42,302 nt of DNA from a virus (lineage: Duplodnaviria > Heunggongvirae > Uroviricota > Caudoviricetes): the IMG/VR virus record IMGVR_UViG_2713896905_000008; one strand, 5' to 3'. A program made the position numbers and the translations under genes. Below the pieces are notes generated by a model. The model did no database searches. It was given only the letters and a program-made list of their open reading frames with translations, and was not told where the DNA came from. The first letter of the stretch is position 1. Every line of letters begins with the position of its first letter. Positions 18,581 to 29,799 of the stretch are shown one piece after another.

Positions 18581-18629
18581 GATTCTTCACCCGTCAGGAC
18601 AGGGGGCGCGGTTCCGCGCCCCTGAATGA

Positions 18630-19849: not shown

Positions 19850-20536
19850 TTAGAAGTTCAGATTTTTCAGTGCATTCAGTGCAGAGCCCACATCCTCAGC
19901 GTCGCGCAGGGACAGTGCGCCATAGCCCCCGGCCATGAATGCTTTGGCCTGGGTACGGGAGAGTCCGACATCACGCAGGACTCTTTCGATTTTTTTCTGT
20001 TCGGGGATTTCCCCGCGGGCCAGTGCGTTCTTGACGTCGCTGATCCGCGCCTCGTCGTTAGACGGGAATGTCACCAGACTGACTTCCCAGAGGTCGATTT
20101 CTTTCAGCAGAAAGGCTTCTTTCGTCCGGTCGTATTCCCAGTCCTTCAGGACGTACCCAATAGAAAGGCCGGTTAACGAACCGGCCTTCATGTGTGCATG
20201 TGCGCGTTTTGCGAGGGGATCATCATCAATGAGCAACCGCCCCCTGACGTAAAGCCCGACATCGTCTTCCTTCATTTCGGTGTAAACACCGATGGGCTCA
20301 TCCATGCGGTGCTGCCAGAGCAGCGCAGGTAACGCTTTTCTGTCACTCCACACCCGCAGGGAAGCAGCAAATGCCCCGGACATCACCACATCATCGTGGC
20401 TGTCCTTTACACCAAAGACGGAGCCATACCCTTCAAACTCACCGGAGTCACTGACAGATTTCAGACTCAGCGGTACATCAAGACGTTGTTTCGTCTGCAT
20501 TGGCGTTATCCTTCTGCTTACCGGCTTTACTGCCAT
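19850..20536 (-). CDS. prohead protease, HK97 family
   Basis: About 215 aa between portal and capsid. Start probably at an internal Met. Confidence 0.75.
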   Translation of the reverse strand: MAVKPVSRRITPMQTKQRLDVPLSLKSVSDSGEFEGYGSVFGVKDSHDDVVMSGAFAASLRVWSDRKALPALLWQHRMDEPIGVYTEMKEDDVGLYVRGRLLIDDDPLAKRAHAHMKAGSLTGLSIGYVLKDWEYDRTKEAFLLKEIDLWEVSLVTFPSNDEARISDVKNALARGEIPEQKKIERVLRDVGLSRTQAKAFMAGGYGALSLRDAEDVGSALNALKNLNF

Positions 20537-21719
20537 CGGAGGGTTTCGTGGTCATGTTCATCGGTGTGAGATAGACATCACCACCGGGACGCGGATTCAT
20601 ATCTTCCAGGTCGCGGCAGTCATTGGGAGAGTAAATTCCCCAGTTGATCCCGGTGGCGTAGGCTTCAAAACGGGACTTCATATCCCCGCGCAGTAACGCC
20701 CCGGCGTTAAATTTGGCGTAATAAACGCCCTGCTTACTTTTTCGTACCAGTCCGGTGTTGATCCGCTGTTCGATGCGGGTCAGATACGGCACCAGTGAAT
20801 AGTTGATAAATCCCAGCCCCAGCTCTTCGATATTGTTGAAGGTGGCTCGATCGGTGTTCTGCACCATGTGCAACGGCACCCGGAACAGACGACAGATTTC
20901 TTCAAGCTGAAACTTGCGGGTTTCCAGGAACTGGCTGTCCTCGGCGTTCAGCGCCATCGACTTCCAGTCCAGCCCCATCTCAAGGATCATCGGGCGGTGA
21001 GCATTGCCAAGCCCGGTGTGACGCTCCTCAAAATCTTTCTTCAGGCGCTCATAAGCCTGATCTGACAGCGTCTGCTCTGTACGCAACACACCCGACGTCA
21101 CCGCGCCATTGCTGAACAGTCTGGCCCCGTGCTCTTCGGTCGCTGCCGCCAGCGATATTGCCTCGCGGGCATAGGCGACGGGATTCAGTCCCACCAGACC
21201 GTCCAGCGTCAGCGTGCGCACATGCCAGATATCCTCCTGGCTCAGTACATCCGTGGAGCCGTCCGGGAATGTGACCTGATAGACCGGCTCCCAGCTACTG
21301 TTAAGCTTCGGTACCACACAGCCGGGATCGACGGGCAGCAGTTCAGCCACTTCGCCAAATGCTTTCACTTTGTAGGCGTAAAAGTTTCCCCGCAGGCACA
21401 GACAGGTGACCACCAGCTCCCAGAACTCCTGCGGCGTCATATAGCCATTGGGATGCGTGGAGATCAGCTTATGCAGACGCTCGCCGGTGGCTCTCTGTTT
21501 CAGGCTGCCGTTCAGGTGATACAGATTGCAGGGCAACATCCCGACCGACTCTGCCAGCACCCTGACGCAGGAAAAAACCGCCGTCAGTCGCATGGCCCGC
21601 TGGCTGCTGATCTGCTTTCCGGTATAGGTGTCGTAGGACAACCCGATAGCATCCGCCAGCTCTGCTGGCGTGGTCACCGGTGCGTCACTTTTTCGTTGAA
21701 ATAATCCCGAAAAGAACAC
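20478..21719 (-). CDS. portal protein
   Basis: 413 aa between terminase and protease, with an acidic C-terminus. Confidence 0.85.
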   Translation of the reverse strand: MFFSGLFQRKSDAPVTTPAELADAIGLSYDTYTGKQISSQRAMRLTAVFSCVRVLAESVGMLPCNLYHLNGSLKQRATGERLHKLISTHPNGYMTPQEFWELVVTCLCLRGNFYAYKVKAFGEVAELLPVDPGCVVPKLNSSWEPVYQVTFPDGSTDVLSQEDIWHVRTLTLDGLVGLNPVAYAREAISLAAATEEHGARLFSNGAVTSGVLRTEQTLSDQAYERLKKDFEERHTGLGNAHRPMILEMGLDWKSMALNAEDSQFLETRKFQLEEICRLFRVPLHMVQNTDRATFNNIEELGLGFINYSLVPYLTRIEQRINTGLVRKSKQGVYYAKFNAGALLRGDMKSRFEAYATGINWGIYSPNDCRDLEDMNPRPGGDVYLTPMNMTTKPSDGSKAGKQKDNANADETTS

Positions 21720-21912: not shown

Positions 21913-23646
21913 TTAAAGCGAGCGGATCCCATAGGACTCAATGTGGTCAGACAGCGTGTCTTCTTTCTCGTACAGCATGGCTCTGCCAACCGCCATAATC
22001 AGCGCAACTGCACCATCGATTTTGTTTTCCGCCTGCTCTTTGACGGGCTTCACCACATCATCGTTACCCGGAATGGTTTTGCCGACCACGTTGCCGATAC
22101 ACCAGGTCATGATGGGATTGCCATCATGATGAAAGCGCCCCGATTCAATTGCCGCTTCCAGCTCTTTCATCGGGTCGGACATGTTGGTGTAGTTCTGAAT
22201 GATAGTGATGGGGTTCAGGTCTTCATCAGCAAGGTCATGTGACAGCCCGGTCGCCCCGAAGGGGTCGATGGGTGACTCACTGACCGGGCTGATTTTGTTC
22301 GCCGCTTTGGCCTCCTCGAGGATGTAGCGATAATCCACTTCCGCACCATCGGTAACGGTCAGAACGCCCATTTCCACCCATTTCTGAAAGCGTTCGGCTG
22401 TCCGTCGATCTTCATTTTTCTCGACGCTGTACACCGTGTCATACGGTACCCAGAAACGCGGGGCCACACTGTAGTAATGCGTTTTACCGTCAATCTCGCG
22501 GGTATAAAGTCGCGCCATGCTGTTCATATCCAGCTTACGCGCCAGGTCAAAGGCCAGAATGCACGGCTGCCCCTCGAACTGCTCAAGGGTCAGTGATTTA
22601 TCCTCGCAGCTCTGCCAGCTCACCAGGTTGAAATAAGCCGAACGCGCCGACACCCAGATATTGAGGTGTTTTGTTTTAAAGACGTTTGCCAGACGGGCGT
22701 TATTTTTCGCACGCTGCTGCTGACTTAACAAAAATTCGCGATAAACCGACACGCCAATATTTGGATTGGCTTTTTCCAGCACCTGCGGGTCGGTCCAGTC
22801 GTCACCTTCATCAACGGTATAGATGATCCCGAACAGTTCATCGTTAGGCACCGAGCCGTTGAGCATCTCGATGACTTCCCGCCGTTTGTCGTAGCACGGC
22901 CCCTCAATGTTGTACCCGGCGGTAGTGATAGCCCACATCAGTGGCTGACGTCGCGCCCCCATCCCGGTAAGCATCGTGGTGTAAAGCGCATCGGTGGCGT
23001 GCTCGTGATATTCATCCACCACCGCACAGTGGGGTGATGATCCATCACCGGGGTTACCGATCAGCGGTTCAAACCGCGCGCCATCCTCCGGACGGTTCAT
23101 GTTTGAGGCGTTAACCTCAATCCCGAACGCTTCCGTCAGCATGGGTGTGCGTTTACACATCAGTCGCGCCGGGCGAAAGACTTCCCACGCCTGTTTCTCT
23201 GTCGTGGCACCGGAATACACTTCCGCGCCAAACTCGTTATCACAGGCAAAACAATACAGGGCGACACCGGCAGAGATTGCCGATTTGCCGTTCTTACGGG
23301 GGATTTCGGTATACACCTCACGGAAGCGGCGCAGCCGGGAGCCTTTATTGACCCAGCCAAACGCGCAGCAGATCACAAAGAGCTGCCACGGCTCCAGCGT
23401 GATGGGCATCCTCTTAAATGCCCACTCACCCTTGGTGTGCGGCAACAGCTGAATAAATTTGGCGGCCCGTTCAGCCAGGTCCTTGTCGAAGCGGTAACGA
23501 AACGACTTACTTTTTTCCGCCATCAGGTCATCAAGATGGCGCTGGCAGGCCTGAATCACAAACTGGCAGGCCACAATCTTTCCGCGCACGACATCACGGG
23601 CATACTGATTGGCAGCATTTACGTTGGGGTAAGATTTCCGGCTCAT
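21913..23646 (-). CDS. terminase large subunit
   Basis: 577 aa; ATPase-type N-terminal region and nuclease-type C-terminal region; overlaps the small subunit stop. Confidence 0.9.
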
Positions 23647-24146
23647 GACTCGATGATTTTCAGAAACGGGTTAGTTGCTTTTTTCTGCCCCGCCAGGCCA
23701 ATCAGACGCTGGCGGCTGCTGGGGTCGAGTCCGAGCATTGCCCCCGTGCTGCTCATTTCGGACTCCTGTTCTTTTTTGGCGGTCAGCTCCGGATTTTTGA
23801 CCATGCCGCCCATTGCACCGGTGATGGTGTTGCCCTGTCTGGCAATATTTTTCACGGCACGTCGCCAGAACTCATAGGCCACGCACCACCGCTCAAGTAC
23901 CGCCAGGTCAGTCACGCACAGCAGGCCCTGACCGCAGAGTTCTTTGGTTGTCAGTTGCCACATGATCGTGGCGAGAGGGAGATCTTCTTCTGCGAACCAC
24001 TCCGGTGGCTCAACACCTTTGATGGGCGTAAAAACAGGTTCATCTTTGTTCAGGGCTCGCTTGCCGGGGTTTCCGGCCAGCGCCTTGCGCGCCGTTGGCT
24101 TGGGGCGACGCCCGGAACGCCCCGCCGTTCCAGCCATATGCGGCAC
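23643..24146 (-). CDS. terminase small subunit
   Basis: 167 aa with basic N-terminus; immediately upstream of the large subunit. Confidence 0.8.
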
Positions 24147-24186
24147 TCCTGGTTAAATTTCATTTTTCGCGGGTATAAAAAAACGA

Positions 24187-24235
24187 TGGGGCGGGCAGTC
24201 CGGAAGACGTCAGGCCGCAGGGATTTGACCCGCCC
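24187..24235. other. GC-rich inverted repeat between HNH and terminase genes (candidate cos / packaging-site structure)
   Basis: GGGGCGGG ... CCCGCCCC flanking about 33 bp that include a GACGTC palindrome. Confidence 0.3.
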
Positions 24236-24262
24236 CTCCCCTCAGGCAGTTGAGAATTATTA

Positions 24263-24676
24263 TCACTTCAACCGTTCACGGGCCGTCTTCGCCTTATGAC
24301 ACGGCCAGCACAGACTCTGCAGATTACAGTCGGCATCAGTGCCGCCATGCGCTTTAGGGATGATGTGGTCAACGGTTTTCGCCTCGCGCACCACACCAGC
24401 ACGCAGGCACAACTGGCACAGGCCTTTGTCACGCTTGAGCACACGTTCACGGATAACATCCCATTTCGAACCATAACCGCGCTGGTGTCGGGACTGGCCT
24501 GGCTTGTATTGCTTCCAGCCTTCGCTTTTGTGGCTTTCGCAGTAGCCTGACGGGTCAGTAGTGGTATGGCGGCAGCCGCGAACACGGCAGGCTTTTGGGG
24601 TTCGTAGGGGCATTGCATAATCCTCTTGGATGGTTCGCGTACGATACGTGGCATCCTTCTCAGAATCGAATCGCAC
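24263..24676 (-). CDS. HNH homing-type endonuclease (terminase-associated)
   Basis: Cys/His motifs CRVRGCRHTT...GYCESH and DHIIPKAHGGTDADCNLQSLCWPCH. Start probably at MPLRTPKAC. Confidence 0.8.
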   Translation of the reverse strand: MRFDSEKDATYRTRTIQEDYAMPLRTPKACRVRGCRHTTTDPSGYCESHKSEGWKQYKPGQSRHQRGYGSKWDVIRERVLKRDKGLCQLCLRAGVVREAKTVDHIIPKAHGGTDADCNLQSLCWPCHKAKTARERLK

Positions 24677-24745
24677 TCCATTCCGGTTTTGCCATAAACG
24701 ATCTTTTATGCTTCGCTGGATGTAGTTGATAGTTGTTGAAACTCA

Positions 24746-25099
24746 ATGAACAGGAGTTCACAAATGAATAGTTATGAATGGGAATGGCTTTTGAACAAAG
24801 ATGACACCCTATACTTTTTCCCCGTAGGCCATTCTGTAGAAGGTAATTACAAAATTCACTTTGAGTTGAGCGGTAGTTGTAACCTTAGAGTCTCAGATGC
24901 TGAATGGCATGGTAAACCTGTACTGCTGTTCGAATACTTCGATGAAGATGATGACCGCCCTGCAATAATCGAAATATTAGAAACAACCACTACAACTGTG
25001 GAGGCGATGATCGCACATCTGAATAGTATCGATAGTATTTACCATGAACCGATTTACAAAGCTGTTTACGAGTGGGCTGTAAAGTTTTTCTATCGATGA
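24746..25099 (+). CDS. hypothetical acidic protein (opposite-strand cargo)
   Basis: 117 aa, A+T-rich, on the strand opposite the late operon; contains DEDDDRPAIIEILETTTTTVEA. Confidence 0.5.
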   Translation: MNRSSQMNSYEWEWLLNKDDTLYFFPVGHSVEGNYKIHFELSGSCNLRVSDAEWHGKPVLLFEYFDEDDDRPAIIEILETTTTTVEAMIAHLNSIDSIYHEPIYKAVYEWAVKFFYR

Positions 25100-25142
25100 T
25101 ACTTCGTTATCTTTCTGGTATTCACAATACCTTTACATATTA

Positions 25143-25769
25143 ATGACATGCCAGCACAATACTGTCACTTACAACCGTTCGGATTACCTAGAGAAAAGTA
25201 TGATTCAGGATTTACTGATCGAAGCAATTAGTCACGATAGGATGCATAAAAAGTTAAATGAACTGAATGGCTACTTCTACAATCGCAAACATGAAACACA
25301 AATACGTGATGAGTTAGTTGTTATACTCAATCAAATCAGCACACTAACTGCTTTAAGTGAGCATCCAAAACTCGGTATCGGCGCTGTTGACATATCACTT
25401 TATAACCAGTCGATATTAACGTCTGAACATAATGGCAATGTTGCAACCATCGAGATAAAACACCATTACCCAAAGGATTTACTTTATCGGCAAGTTCAAG
25501 AAGACATCATTTCCGATATTTCAAGAGTAATAGTTTCACCAACTACACATTTTATCCATATAATCCAGCAAAGAACCAGGATTAATACTCCTTCTTTTGG
25601 CCAAGTGAAATTCCTTGAACGTGATGCAAGTGATATCAGCACTTATGTGCAATACCTTGAAGAGCTAAGTTCATTTCCCAGTAATTTTCATAAAAAAAGT
25701 ATATGTATTGAGGTACTTGGTGAAATTATGTCGACATATACCTTTAACGTATATTCATTTGACAACTGA
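25143..25769 (+). CDS. hypothetical protein (opposite-strand cargo, co-oriented with 24746-25099)
   Basis: 208 aa, A+T-rich, no family recognised. Start may be at an internal Met. Confidence 0.5.
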   Translation: MTCQHNTVTYNRSDYLEKSMIQDLLIEAISHDRMHKKLNELNGYFYNRKHETQIRDELVVILNQISTLTALSEHPKLGIGAVDISLYNQSILTSEHNGNVATIEIKHHYPKDLLYRQVQEDIISDISRVIVSPTTHFIHIIQQRTRINTPSFGQVKFLERDASDISTYVQYLEELSSFPSNFHKKSICIEVLGEIMSTYTFNVYSFDN

Positions 25770-27406: not shown

Positions 27407-28582
27407 ATGGATATAACTTGTTTAGAATGTGGCAATGTTCTTGACGACCCAACTGTAGCTTGCGATAAATGCGGCGCCACGCCTCATGTTGTAGTGCTGG
27501 GCAAACAATCGTACTTTCCTATTGGTGCTGTAACAGCAAATCTTGAAAAAAATGATTCAAGAGCATTTGATTATCGATTAGGTGAAGTTTGGGATCTAAA
27601 AAATGAAGTCACATCTGAATTCATAACCAGAATTGAGAAAAAATTTAGCCGAAAAAACAAATTTCATAACTTCCTAGACTCAGATCACAACCCTTCATCC
27701 ATTCCTACGATCCTAAAAAAATACATTAATAAAAATAATGAATTCATTGATTTATCTAGAGCTATAATAGAGAAGCTTAAACATAATGCTAATAACGAAT
27801 CGAGAGTTGCCCAACTTCAGGGGGGGAGCGTTGTTTTCATCCACTATAAGTCTACCGAACCAGAGGATTTGGGAAAACTTCTAATCGTAATGGTTGATAA
27901 ACAAAGCGCCTATGACTTTGATTCGGATAAGTTGACCCCAACAAGATTAAATCCAATTAATACCGATGCCTTACGGCAGGCTGCGATGTTCGATTTAACT
28001 TTATTCGAAGCCAGTTATCCAGAAAACAAGGGTGACTCATATGTACATTTCTTGCAAGGTAAATCTAAAAGCGATTTTTTCAAAGACTCATTAGGTTGCC
28101 GACATGATTCGGACAATAAAAGAAGCATTCAGCAATTATTCAGTGCTATAGATATTTTTGCTAGTAAAAACTCACTCGGTCGTGTACTGCGTGATACTAT
28201 TGACAATGAAGTTAAATCCTTACTGGAAAAAAAATCAAAAGATAAATACGGAAATAAGTCCGTTAAGATAGAGGATATTTCAAAAATAATTGACTCATGC
28301 CTGACTGATTCACACAAATGTAAGGGAACGTTTGTCGATTTTGTTAATCTTAATGGTTTCCAGATTGATCCTCAATTTGAACCAACTCCTAAAGCAGCTG
28401 AAAGCGCGCTTACAATTGAAGTGGCAGATAACGACAATAATTTTAAGTTGAAAATAATGCGTGGAGCTATTGGAGACGAAAAGTCAAATAAGCCTGTAAT
28501 TCTCACTGACAACAAATGCGAAATTGTGATAAAATTGAGTCAGGCAAATTATGATGAACTCAAAAGATATAGAGACAGCTAA
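27407..28582 (+). CDS. zinc-ribbon protein with NdpA/YejK-like (NA37-type) region; first gene of a cargo pair
   Basis: 391 aa. N-terminal CLECGN...CDKCG four-Cys ribbon. Central region aligns by eye with YejK: GGSVVFIHY / GGFVLFCHY and YVHFLQGKSKSDFFKDSLG / [22 protein letters not shown]. A+T-rich. Confidence 0.6.
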   Translation: MDITCLECGNVLDDPTVACDKCGATPHVVVLGKQSYFPIGAVTANLEKNDSRAFDYRLGEVWDLKNEVTSEFITRIEKKFSRKNKFHNFLDSDHNPSSIPTILKKYINKNNEFIDLSRAIIEKLKHNANNESRVAQLQGGSVVFIHYKSTEPEDLGKLLIVMVDKQSAYDFDSDKLTPTRLNPINTDALRQAAMFDLTLFEASYPENKGDSYVHFLQGKSKSDFFKDSLGCRHDSDNKRSIQQLFSAIDIFASKNSLGRVLRDTIDNEVKSLLEKKSKDKYGNKSVKIEDISKIIDSCLTDSHKCKGTFVDFVNLNGFQIDPQFEPTPKAAESALTIEVADNDNNFKLKIMRGAIGDEKSNKPVILTDNKCEIVIKLSQANYDELKRYRDS

Positions 28583-28584
28583 TA

Positions 28585-29799
28585 ATGACAATTGCTGATG
28601 ACTTATCAAGATTAGCGCAGATTATTAACGGAGCCTCAAGCAGAGTTGAGGGCTACTACACTGTCATAAGTCTTGAAGAAAGCATTGTTATTGTAAATAG
28701 TTCTGAAATAATTAGACTGTTACAATCTATAGGTTATAAAAAGGCAACAAACTGCATCGAAAATAATGAAATTTGGCTAGATCGCCAAGCTTCATCTTGG
28801 GATGACGCTATAATTTATGAGAATGTTGAGTCTTTTTGGTCTAGAGTAAACACCCAAAACGCTCTTCCGAAAAATTATATCATCGGAACGCCGTTAATAC
28901 TCCCTACTTCTAAGAATGAAAGCATCGAAAAAATCCATATTTTCTTTATGTGGAAAGATATCCTTTCATTAATTGCTGATCATCATAACAGTGACTGCTC
29001 TGTCTTATTTTTCACCAATGAAGACAAAAGTTATACAGTCGAACTCACGCATTTTTTACAATATAGCGAGATTAATCGCTTATCGAACTCGTCTCTTAAA
29101 TATGAAATTATAAAGGAGCTTCTCGACACAATAAAAATCAATGATTTACACAAAAGCGAGCGCAAGCTCGTTATACGTTCAGCCATAAACGAAGTATTTA
29201 AAGCAAATGGTACATTCAATTTCTTTGACTTGCTTAACTCTACTGAACTCGTCAGAAAAAAATATGATGAACTATATGAGATTTACACAAAGAGGTTTTC
29301 TGTAAATAAAATTCTTAACGAACTCGATGAGAAAAATCTTGAGTTCACGAGTAAAATTAACGAATTCATATCATCTAATCAGACAAAAGCATTGACTATT
29401 CCCGGTGCATTAATAGCAGCTGGTGGCTTAGTGAAGGCTAATGAAACAACCGAAGCAATATTGATTATCGCAGGACTTTGGATGATAAAAAAAGTCAATT
29501 ACATTTCTATTGAGATATTCAATGAAACATTCGACAACTTACGTTCTCGAGTGGAGTCCGCTTTCGATAAGTATTTAAAGTTTGAAGAAAATAAAGAAAT
29601 CAAAGATAATGCAGATAGTATTAAGAGTAGCATTACAGGTTTGATTGATAAAGCTAAAAAAAGGATGAGAACTGTTAAATATCTCGCATCAGCCATGTTT
29701 TATGGAGGCCTTATTTACGTTGGATATAAACAGTTCCCAGTCTTTTTTGAAAAATCGGCAGTAAATCTATTTTATTTTTTATGCCATACTATAAGCTAA
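28585..29799 (+). CDS. protein with C-terminal two-helix membrane anchor; second gene of the cargo pair
   Basis: 404 aa, starts 2 nt after the upstream stop. Hydrophobic helices ALTIPGALIAAGGLV...AILIIAGLWMI and YLASAMFYGGLIYVGY. No enzymatic motif recognised. 3' end overlaps the Q gene stop convergently. Confidence 0.6.
   Translation: MTIADDLSRLAQIINGASSRVEGYYTVISLEESIVIVNSSEIIRLLQSIGYKKATNCIENNEIWLDRQASSWDDAIIYENVESFWSRVNTQNALPKNYIIGTPLILPTSKNESIEKIHIFFMWKDILSLIADHHNSDCSVLFFTNEDKSYTVELTHFLQYSEINRLSNSSLKYEIIKELLDTIKINDLHKSERKLVIRSAINEVFKANGTFNFFDLLNSTELVRKKYDELYEIYTKRFSVNKILNELDEKNLEFTSKINEFISSNQTKALTIPGALIAAGGLVKANETTEAILIIAGLWMIKKVNYISIEIFNETFDNLRSRVESAFDKYLKFEENKEIKDNADSIKSSITGLIDKAKKRMRTVKYLASAMFYGGLIYVGYKQFPVFFEKSAVNLFYFLCHTIS

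Follow-up and report, generated by a model that had tools for sequence, protein, structure and literature searches.

A very probable SfI-type cos site between the HNH endonuclease and P27-family small terminase genes of a temperate phage, with a right-hand core apparently common to HK97 and many Enterobacterales prophages

Among the described packaging systems with which the present locus can be compared, phage HK97 has 10-nt 3' overhangs, and its gp74 is the only HNH protein for which a requirement for, or a stimulation of, cos cleavage has been shown. The HK97 small terminase (TerS) binds positions +15 to +29 and needs an A-tract; it has also been considered possible that one strand is cut by gp74 and the other by the large terminase, TerL (Chechik et al., PMC11331095). 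As for the length of the ends, Fung et al. 2022 (PMC9410871) indicate a 10-nt 3' overhang for HK97 in a figure legend, yet '12-nt 3'' for HK97 and '10-nt 5'' for lambda in their Discussion, where the numbers of the two phages appear to have been swapped. Several zinc-ribbon HNH enzymes encoded next to cos sites nick CG^GT, with AC^CG on the opposite strand, and HK97 gp74 was termed non-specific in the same study (Xu and Gupta 2013, PMC3592412).

The second reference point is the group of phages formed by SfI, SfII, SfIV and SfV. Their site was reportedly first postulated for SfV, by Allison in 2002. Run-off sequencing of the termini of SfI virion DNA revealed that 10 nt, 5'-TGCCCGCCCC-3', are missing with respect to the prophage; the paper gives the length of 10 nt, the 3' polarity not being explicit in it (PMC3636060). 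In the SfIV paper, SfI, SfII, SfIV and SfV are said to have one common cos site, and the SfI and SfIV papers both describe a site-specific cos mechanism rather than headful packaging.

The window (the whole stretch of DNA that was analysed, 42,302 nt in length) carries intact genes for an HNH endonuclease, a P27-family TerS, TerL and a portal protein, whose coordinates are given in Table 1 together with those of the parts of the cos site. The first-pass annotation had put a candidate cos in the gap between an HNH gene and a small terminase gene; the identity of these two neighbours was confirmed by their matches to PF01844 and PF05119, and both lie on the minus strand. The HNH translation displays an N-terminal zinc-ribbon-like CxxxxC...CxxH segment, followed by CxxC...DH...N...CxxCH, the domains being grouped as in PMC3592412. 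Concerning terS, a mechanical list of open reading frames starts the gene at a GTG at 24146, within the AGGAG ribosome-binding site (24146-24150); the start is likely the ATG at 24137, which matches the annotation of SfV and SfI. For the P27-family TerS, no relative of solved structure was found by sequence.

Table 1. Window coordinates of the genes around the HNH/terS gap and of the parts of the putative cos site
Feature	Position	Strand	Length or basis
HNH endonuclease gene, 116 aa	24263..24613	-	PF01844, E 5e-15; phrog_144, E 2e-44
Intergenic gap HNH/terS	24138-24262		125 nt
Small terminase gene, P27 family, 164 aa from ATG	23643..24137	-	PF05119, E 2e-21; phrog_83, E 2e-60
Large terminase gene (TerL), ATPase and nuclease domains	21913..23646	-	PF03354 and PF20441
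Portal gene	20478..21719	-	PF04860, E 1e-107
Putative cos region, about -56 to +31 around the top-strand cut	24157..24243	-	delimited by conservation and by satellite-like islands
G-run GAGGGGAGGGGCGGG, holding the distal repeat arm	24229..24243	-	conserved in HNH-chosen loci and in HK97
TCAAATC box, directly after the G-run	24222..24228	-	common to HK97 and to Klebsiella and Salmonella phages
21-nt spacer, variable in sequence and fixed in length	24201..24221	-	80 loci with 99%-identical TerS; also across genera
GAC just before the cohesive end	24198..24200	-	(G/T)AC^YGCC conserved in the HNH-selected set
10-nt cohesive end TGCCCGCCCC (plus strand GGGGCGGGCA), holding the proximal repeat arm	24188..24197	-	equals the SfI run-off gap
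Left-end half ATCGTTTTTTTATACCCGCGAAAAATGAAAT, candidate cosB-like side	24157..24187	-	near-invariant in 80 close relatives

A megablast comparison with phage records showed the region to be 94-99% identical to SfI, SfII, SfIV, SfV and related E. coli and Salmonella phages. The 10 nt mapped in SfI are found unchanged in the window, on the minus strand and between the HNH and terS genes (24197-24188), and the SfI record ends with these same 10 nt, its first base corresponding to window position 24187. Resting on this identity with SfI and on the intact packaging genes, the assignment that we favour is that the gap would very probably be the cos site of a temperate phage of the SfV/SfI kind, whose host genome is of the E. 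coli/Shigella type and carries it in integrated form. The initial proposal that cos lies between the HNH and terS genes, now supported by the SfI-mapped end and by its 94-99% identical flanks, is correct, and the site was already known, the 10-nt end having been published in 2013.

Gene order (HNH, cos, terS, terL), the 10-nt end and the G-run/TCAAATC box are the same in SfI, SfII, SfIV, SfV and the window, and the left half differs by single bases. The 21-nt spacer shows a few substitutions, reading CCTGCGGCC in the window and TCTGTGACC in SfI and SfV. Immediately after the cut, the window and SfV have A, and SfI has G. The database records of these phages begin at various places of the gap, which correspond to window positions 24204 for SfV (U82619) and SfIV (KC814930), 24262 for SfII (KC736978) and 24152 for ST64B (AY055382). 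Among the five records compared, only that of SfI (JX509734) begins directly after the mapped cohesive end, and the starts of the other four are taken as arbitrary linearisation points rather than genome termini. A 221-nt stretch around the site is present in 1121 of 5426 complete E. coli genomes, where the annotation reads 'HNH endonuclease | phage terminase small subunit P27 family'. A literal search of the literature for the overhang sequences returned unrelated papers only.

Outside the packaging genes, the window differs from SfV by two extra AT-rich ORFs (117 and 208 aa, GC 36-40%) on the opposite strand, located between Rz/Rz1 and HNH (24746-25769, +), a slot that is empty in SfV. Neither Pfam nor PADLOC gave a match for them, and the segment looks like a moron insertion. 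Another AT-rich pair on the opposite strand (27407-29799, +; GC 33-36%) is found between a Q-like gene and the holin gene. It consists of a 391-aa protein matching PF04245 (37-kDa nucleoid-associated protein, E 1e-23) and of a 404-aa partner for which no family was found; PADLOC had no match for either.

The GC-rich inverted repeat described in the first-pass annotation is indeed present in the gap. Its plus-strand arms, GGGGCGGG (24188-24195) and CCCGCCCC (24229-24236), are complementary at 8 of 8 positions, consist of G and C only, and are separated by 33 nt. Taken alone, the repeat is within chance expectation: when the intergenic stretch was shuffled 5000 times with its dinucleotides preserved, a perfect 8-nt inverted repeat with a loop of 3-40 nt appeared in 314 cases (6%), about 5% of the 116-nt windows of the whole sequence contain one, and the folding of the region is unremarkable when compared with shuffles (z = -0.43 as DNA and -0.52 as RNA). 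Rfam covariance models gave no match in 23900-24750 at E up to 1. This chance level would suit a reading in which the repeat is fortuitous and the prophage packages by headful or from a site elsewhere, but we regard that reading as extremely improbable. The 10-nt end is identical to the mapped SfI site, with flanks at 94-99%, TerL is of the HK97 kind with an HNH gene adjoining, and a site-specific cos is reported for these phages in the SfI and SfIV papers. Furthermore, the composite motif GGRTCAAATC-N21-GACYGCC has a single exact match in the window, at this very place, with 0.02 matches expected even at 2 mismatches, which is far beyond chance.

Another reading makes the repeat a hairpin or cruciform whose structure would be recognised by terminase or by the HNH enzyme, the pairing of the arms being then the functional feature of cos. 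The arms are perfect and all G/C, one of them is part of the cohesive end, and the 42-kb window holds just one further perfect 8-nt inverted repeat made of G and C alone. However, among 26 representative cos sites, the longest perfect complement between the G-run and the cut region reaches 8 nt in the SfV type only, and it is limited to 3-7 nt in 24 of them, HK97 included (3 nt). In close relatives whose G-run contains GGGGGAGG, the overhang is unaltered and the pairing is lost, Salmonella phage 118970_sal3 has TGCCCGCCTC facing an unchanged G-run, and relatives with the overhang CCCGCCTC break the pairing as well. No compensatory change between the arms was seen in the relatives compared. With, in addition, fold z-scores of about -0.4 to -0.5 and 6% of the shuffles giving an equal repeat, a role for the pairing seems very unlikely. 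From the comparison of relatives, the 8-bp repeat would be a by-product of two conserved boxes and not a required hairpin, arising from a fortuitous complementarity between the G-run and the cohesive end, which is C-rich in this subtype. The earlier view of the repeat as the cos structure could consequently not be maintained: the proximal arm sits inside the cohesive end, the distal arm belongs to the separate, conserved G-run, the pairing is not conserved, and the region folds as shuffles do. The other all-G/C repeat of the window (GGGGCGCG, 18603-18622, 4-nt loop) lies among the structural genes, where it may form a hairpin resembling a terminator.

The stem, followed on the coding strand by AUCGUUUUUUU, may also be viewed as an intrinsic terminator between HNH and terS, either alone or overlapping cos. 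RNA folding places a G/C stem of 8-10 bp directly before the U7 run, and predicted rho-independent terminators are mentioned for the genome in the SfIV paper, the text examined giving no positions for them. Yet the stem encloses 33 nt instead of the usual loop of 3-8 nt, a consensus scan for terminators and promoters found nothing in the gap, and the RNA energy is no better than that of shuffles (z = -0.52). In HK97 and in other classes, the T-run adjoins no such stem, and the HK97 A/T tract is needed for TerS binding (PMC11331095). A terminator at this position would also be expected to split a late operon whose genes need co-expression, and we give this reading very little credence.

Under the preferred reading, i.e. 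a cos site of the SfI type, the top-strand cut falls between 24188 and 24187 (SfI register), and the 10-nt SfI gap would set the bottom-strand nick between 24198 and 24197 (plus strand GGGGCGGGCA^GTCC). The cut region would then be GAC^TGCCCGCCCC^A, with a bottom-strand nick context of CA^GT in the window and of CG^GT in HK97 and most relatives. The run-off gap and the HK97 precedent both point to 10-nt 3' overhangs as the probable end polarity, since a gap, and not an overlap, in the run-off reads corresponds to recessed 5' ends. The left half contains a T7 tract at 24177-24183 (+5 to +11) and an A5 tract at 24163-24167 (+21 to +25), and it is likely the TerS binding side.

The mechanism proposed would be as follows. 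Late in growth, terminase would act on concatemeric DNA and two nicks would be made 10 nt apart: the coding strand, which is the minus strand of the window, would be cut between 24188 and 24187, and the plus strand between 24197 and 24198. This would leave 10-nt 3' overhangs, the right end carrying TGCCCGCCCC-3' and the left end the complementary sequence, and packaging would proceed leftward in window coordinates, with terS entering first. The left half (24187-24157, T7 and A5), which matches the small-terminase type, would be bound by TerS, while the right half, with its G-run/TCAAATC box, would probably be read by TerL and/or the HNH enzyme at the time when packaging ends. The attribution of each nick to one of these proteins is speculative.

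The distribution of the right half was analysed in two sets of loci. A scan of viral contigs for GGRTCAAATC-N21-GACYGCC provided at least 120 stretches (L092-L211). Among the matches listed, the G-run precedes all but 4 of the 117 that have enough flanking sequence, and most of the representatives tested are flanked upstream by an HNH gene and downstream by terminase genes. Because a motif-based search is biased, a second set of 80 loci (L212-L291) was picked in species-representative genomes by HNH protein similarity alone; the genome scan relied on a narrower HNH alignment, the one including gp74 being too divergent. The genera thus covered include Serratia, Providencia, Xenorhabdus, Photorhabdus, Morganella, Pantoea, Edwardsiella, Klebsiella and Shigella. 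The HNH stop could be recognised in 79 loci, and 69 of these have, downstream of HNH, a G-run located 28-30 nt before AC[CT]GC; no such pair at this spacing was present on the reverse strands of the same loci, used as control. In this HNH-chosen set, the base before AC is G (53 loci) or T (12 loci), and the overhang opens with C (57) or T (8) and invariably continues with G and C. The TCAAATC box becomes degenerate in the more distant relatives, e.g. TCGAAAG or TAAAATC.

These comparisons argue for a right-hand cos core common to HK97, the SfV-like phages and many Enterobacterales prophages, whatever their TerS type. It is made of the G-run, 28 nt from the end of the G-run to GAC or TAC, and (G/T)AC^YGCC, and spans 24198-24243 in the window. 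Counted from the end of the G-run, the two nicks would be 31 and 41 bp away, or about 3 and 4 helical turns. No description of a G-run with a fixed spacer and an AC^YG core was found in the literature examined, a corpus to which Allison 2002 and Kala 2014 do not belong. We tentatively suggest that the G-run box could be a so-far undescribed, cosQ-like right sub-site read by TerL/HNH, with the zinc-ribbon HNH nicking the bottom strand at AC^YG and TerL the top strand at a distance of 10 nt, although we would put this possibility at clearly less than even.

The left half behaves differently. Clustering was done at 50% identity for the first TerS-sized ORF after the cut and at 72% for positions +1 to +40. 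The +1 to +40 classes and the TerS clusters corresponded one-to-one (74/74, 60/60, 13/13 and 6/6) among the listed loci of both scans, the second left-half class being found with two singleton TerS as well. The 60 nt that precede the cut, in contrast, fall essentially into a single cluster, whichever of the four main TerS types is present. Near-identical right halves are joined to different left halves, as in two 'AATGAGAATGAATGTCAAATAGGCC...' representatives, which indicates a module or mosaic boundary at the cut, that is, at the cohesive end. The pattern is consistent with a left half specific to TerS and a shared right half. Since terS is only 40-100 nt away from the left half, their association could also be due to physical linkage rather than to recognition.

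Some contigs of the viral set (L150, L124, L148 and L106) have the cos core, from about -57 to +31, with no terminase, portal or intact HNH gene nearby. They encode instead Nu1-like or DUF1441 'small terminase-like' proteins and a phrog_1561 protein, and the L150 site (cut at 1755, in reverse-complement orientation) is about 500 nt from the host clpS/clpA genes. L150, L124 and L148 keep the sequence from the G-run to about +31 and then diverge from the phage, their left half being SfV-like in L150 and L124 and of a different type in L148. The four contigs look like satellite (PICI-like) islands borrowing this type of cos, and such islands seem to copy exactly the core defined above. The published E. 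coli PICIs that were examined have a lambda/phi80-type cos.

For the window itself the site matters little, and the conservation of the right-half module adds to it in a modest way. The site fixes the genome ends of a very common type of E. coli/Shigella prophage, which is of use for annotation and for the prediction of packaging strategy, and it reveals that, in several database entries for this phage group, the genome has been linearised arbitrarily within the cos gap. The HK97 cos moreover shares its right-hand module and nick context with hundreds of prophages carrying three other small-terminase types. Such natural chimeras bear on which protein reads which half of cos and makes which nick, and may help work on HK97 packaging.

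With respect to lambda, the cosQ-cosN-cosB arrangement follows a like modular logic, having a cut site with a TerS-specific segment on the packaging-start side and a separate conserved element on the packaging-end side (PMC6739421). The 12-nt 5' overhangs, the Nu1-type TerS with its R sites, the IHF requirement and the lack of an HNH partner set lambda apart, none of these applying here: the TerS of the window matches PF05119 and not PF07471, and the mapped end is 10 nt long. The HNH enzymes of Xu and Gupta 2013 (PMC3592412) are, as that of the window, small proteins with an N-terminal zinc-ribbon encoded beside cos, but they come from Gram-positive phages, and nicking by the window HNH is a prediction. 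The resemblance between the predicted nick context of the window HNH and that of these enzymes is only a lead, not evidence.

The comparison with HK97 is closer. TerL is 26% identical to gp2 over about 520 aa (E 2e-29), both having the two Pfam domains, and the HNH protein is 41% identical to gp74 over 46 aa. In HK97 and in the window alike, the HNH gene adjoins cos and the terminase genes, although gp74 does not have the zinc-ribbon segment (the N-terminal CxxxxC...CxxH of the window HNH) and the distance from HNH to cos is about 320 nt in HK97 vs. 65 nt to the cohesive end in the window. As for TerS, no similarity to gp1 was detectable (blastp E 6.2), and gp1 has no PF05119 match.

At the DNA level, position 1 of the HK97 record fits the published cos numbering (T16, C:G 21 and an A-tract at 24-29), so the end of the record can be equated with the top-strand cut. 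The right end of HK97 has GGATCAAATC 34 nt before its end, as does the window: it runs ...GGGCAGGGGGGGGGATCAAATC, followed by 34 nt finishing in ...ATGACCGCCGCCAAA, and the window runs ...GAGGGGAGGGGCGGGTCAAATC, followed by 34 nt finishing in ...GGACTGCCCGCCCC. A G-run plus a (G/A)TCAAATC box 34 nt before the top-strand cut is hence common to both and, the ends of HK97 and SfI having been determined independently, the cut lies at an equal distance from the shared box. GAC^YGCC is also present in both at the putative bottom-strand nick. On the left side, both have an A/T tract, the left halves being otherwise unrelated in sequence; the HK97 overhang, deduced from the record end to be CGCCGCCAAA, differs from TGCCCGCCCC, and the 8-bp inverted repeat is absent from HK97. 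The HK97-type packaging put forward in the first-pass annotation was therefore retained as regards the TerL homology, the HNH match and the shared box 34 nt from the cut, but not as regards TerS, which is of the P27 family and unlike gp1. As judged from these alignments, the element would work like HK97 while carrying a different TerS module.
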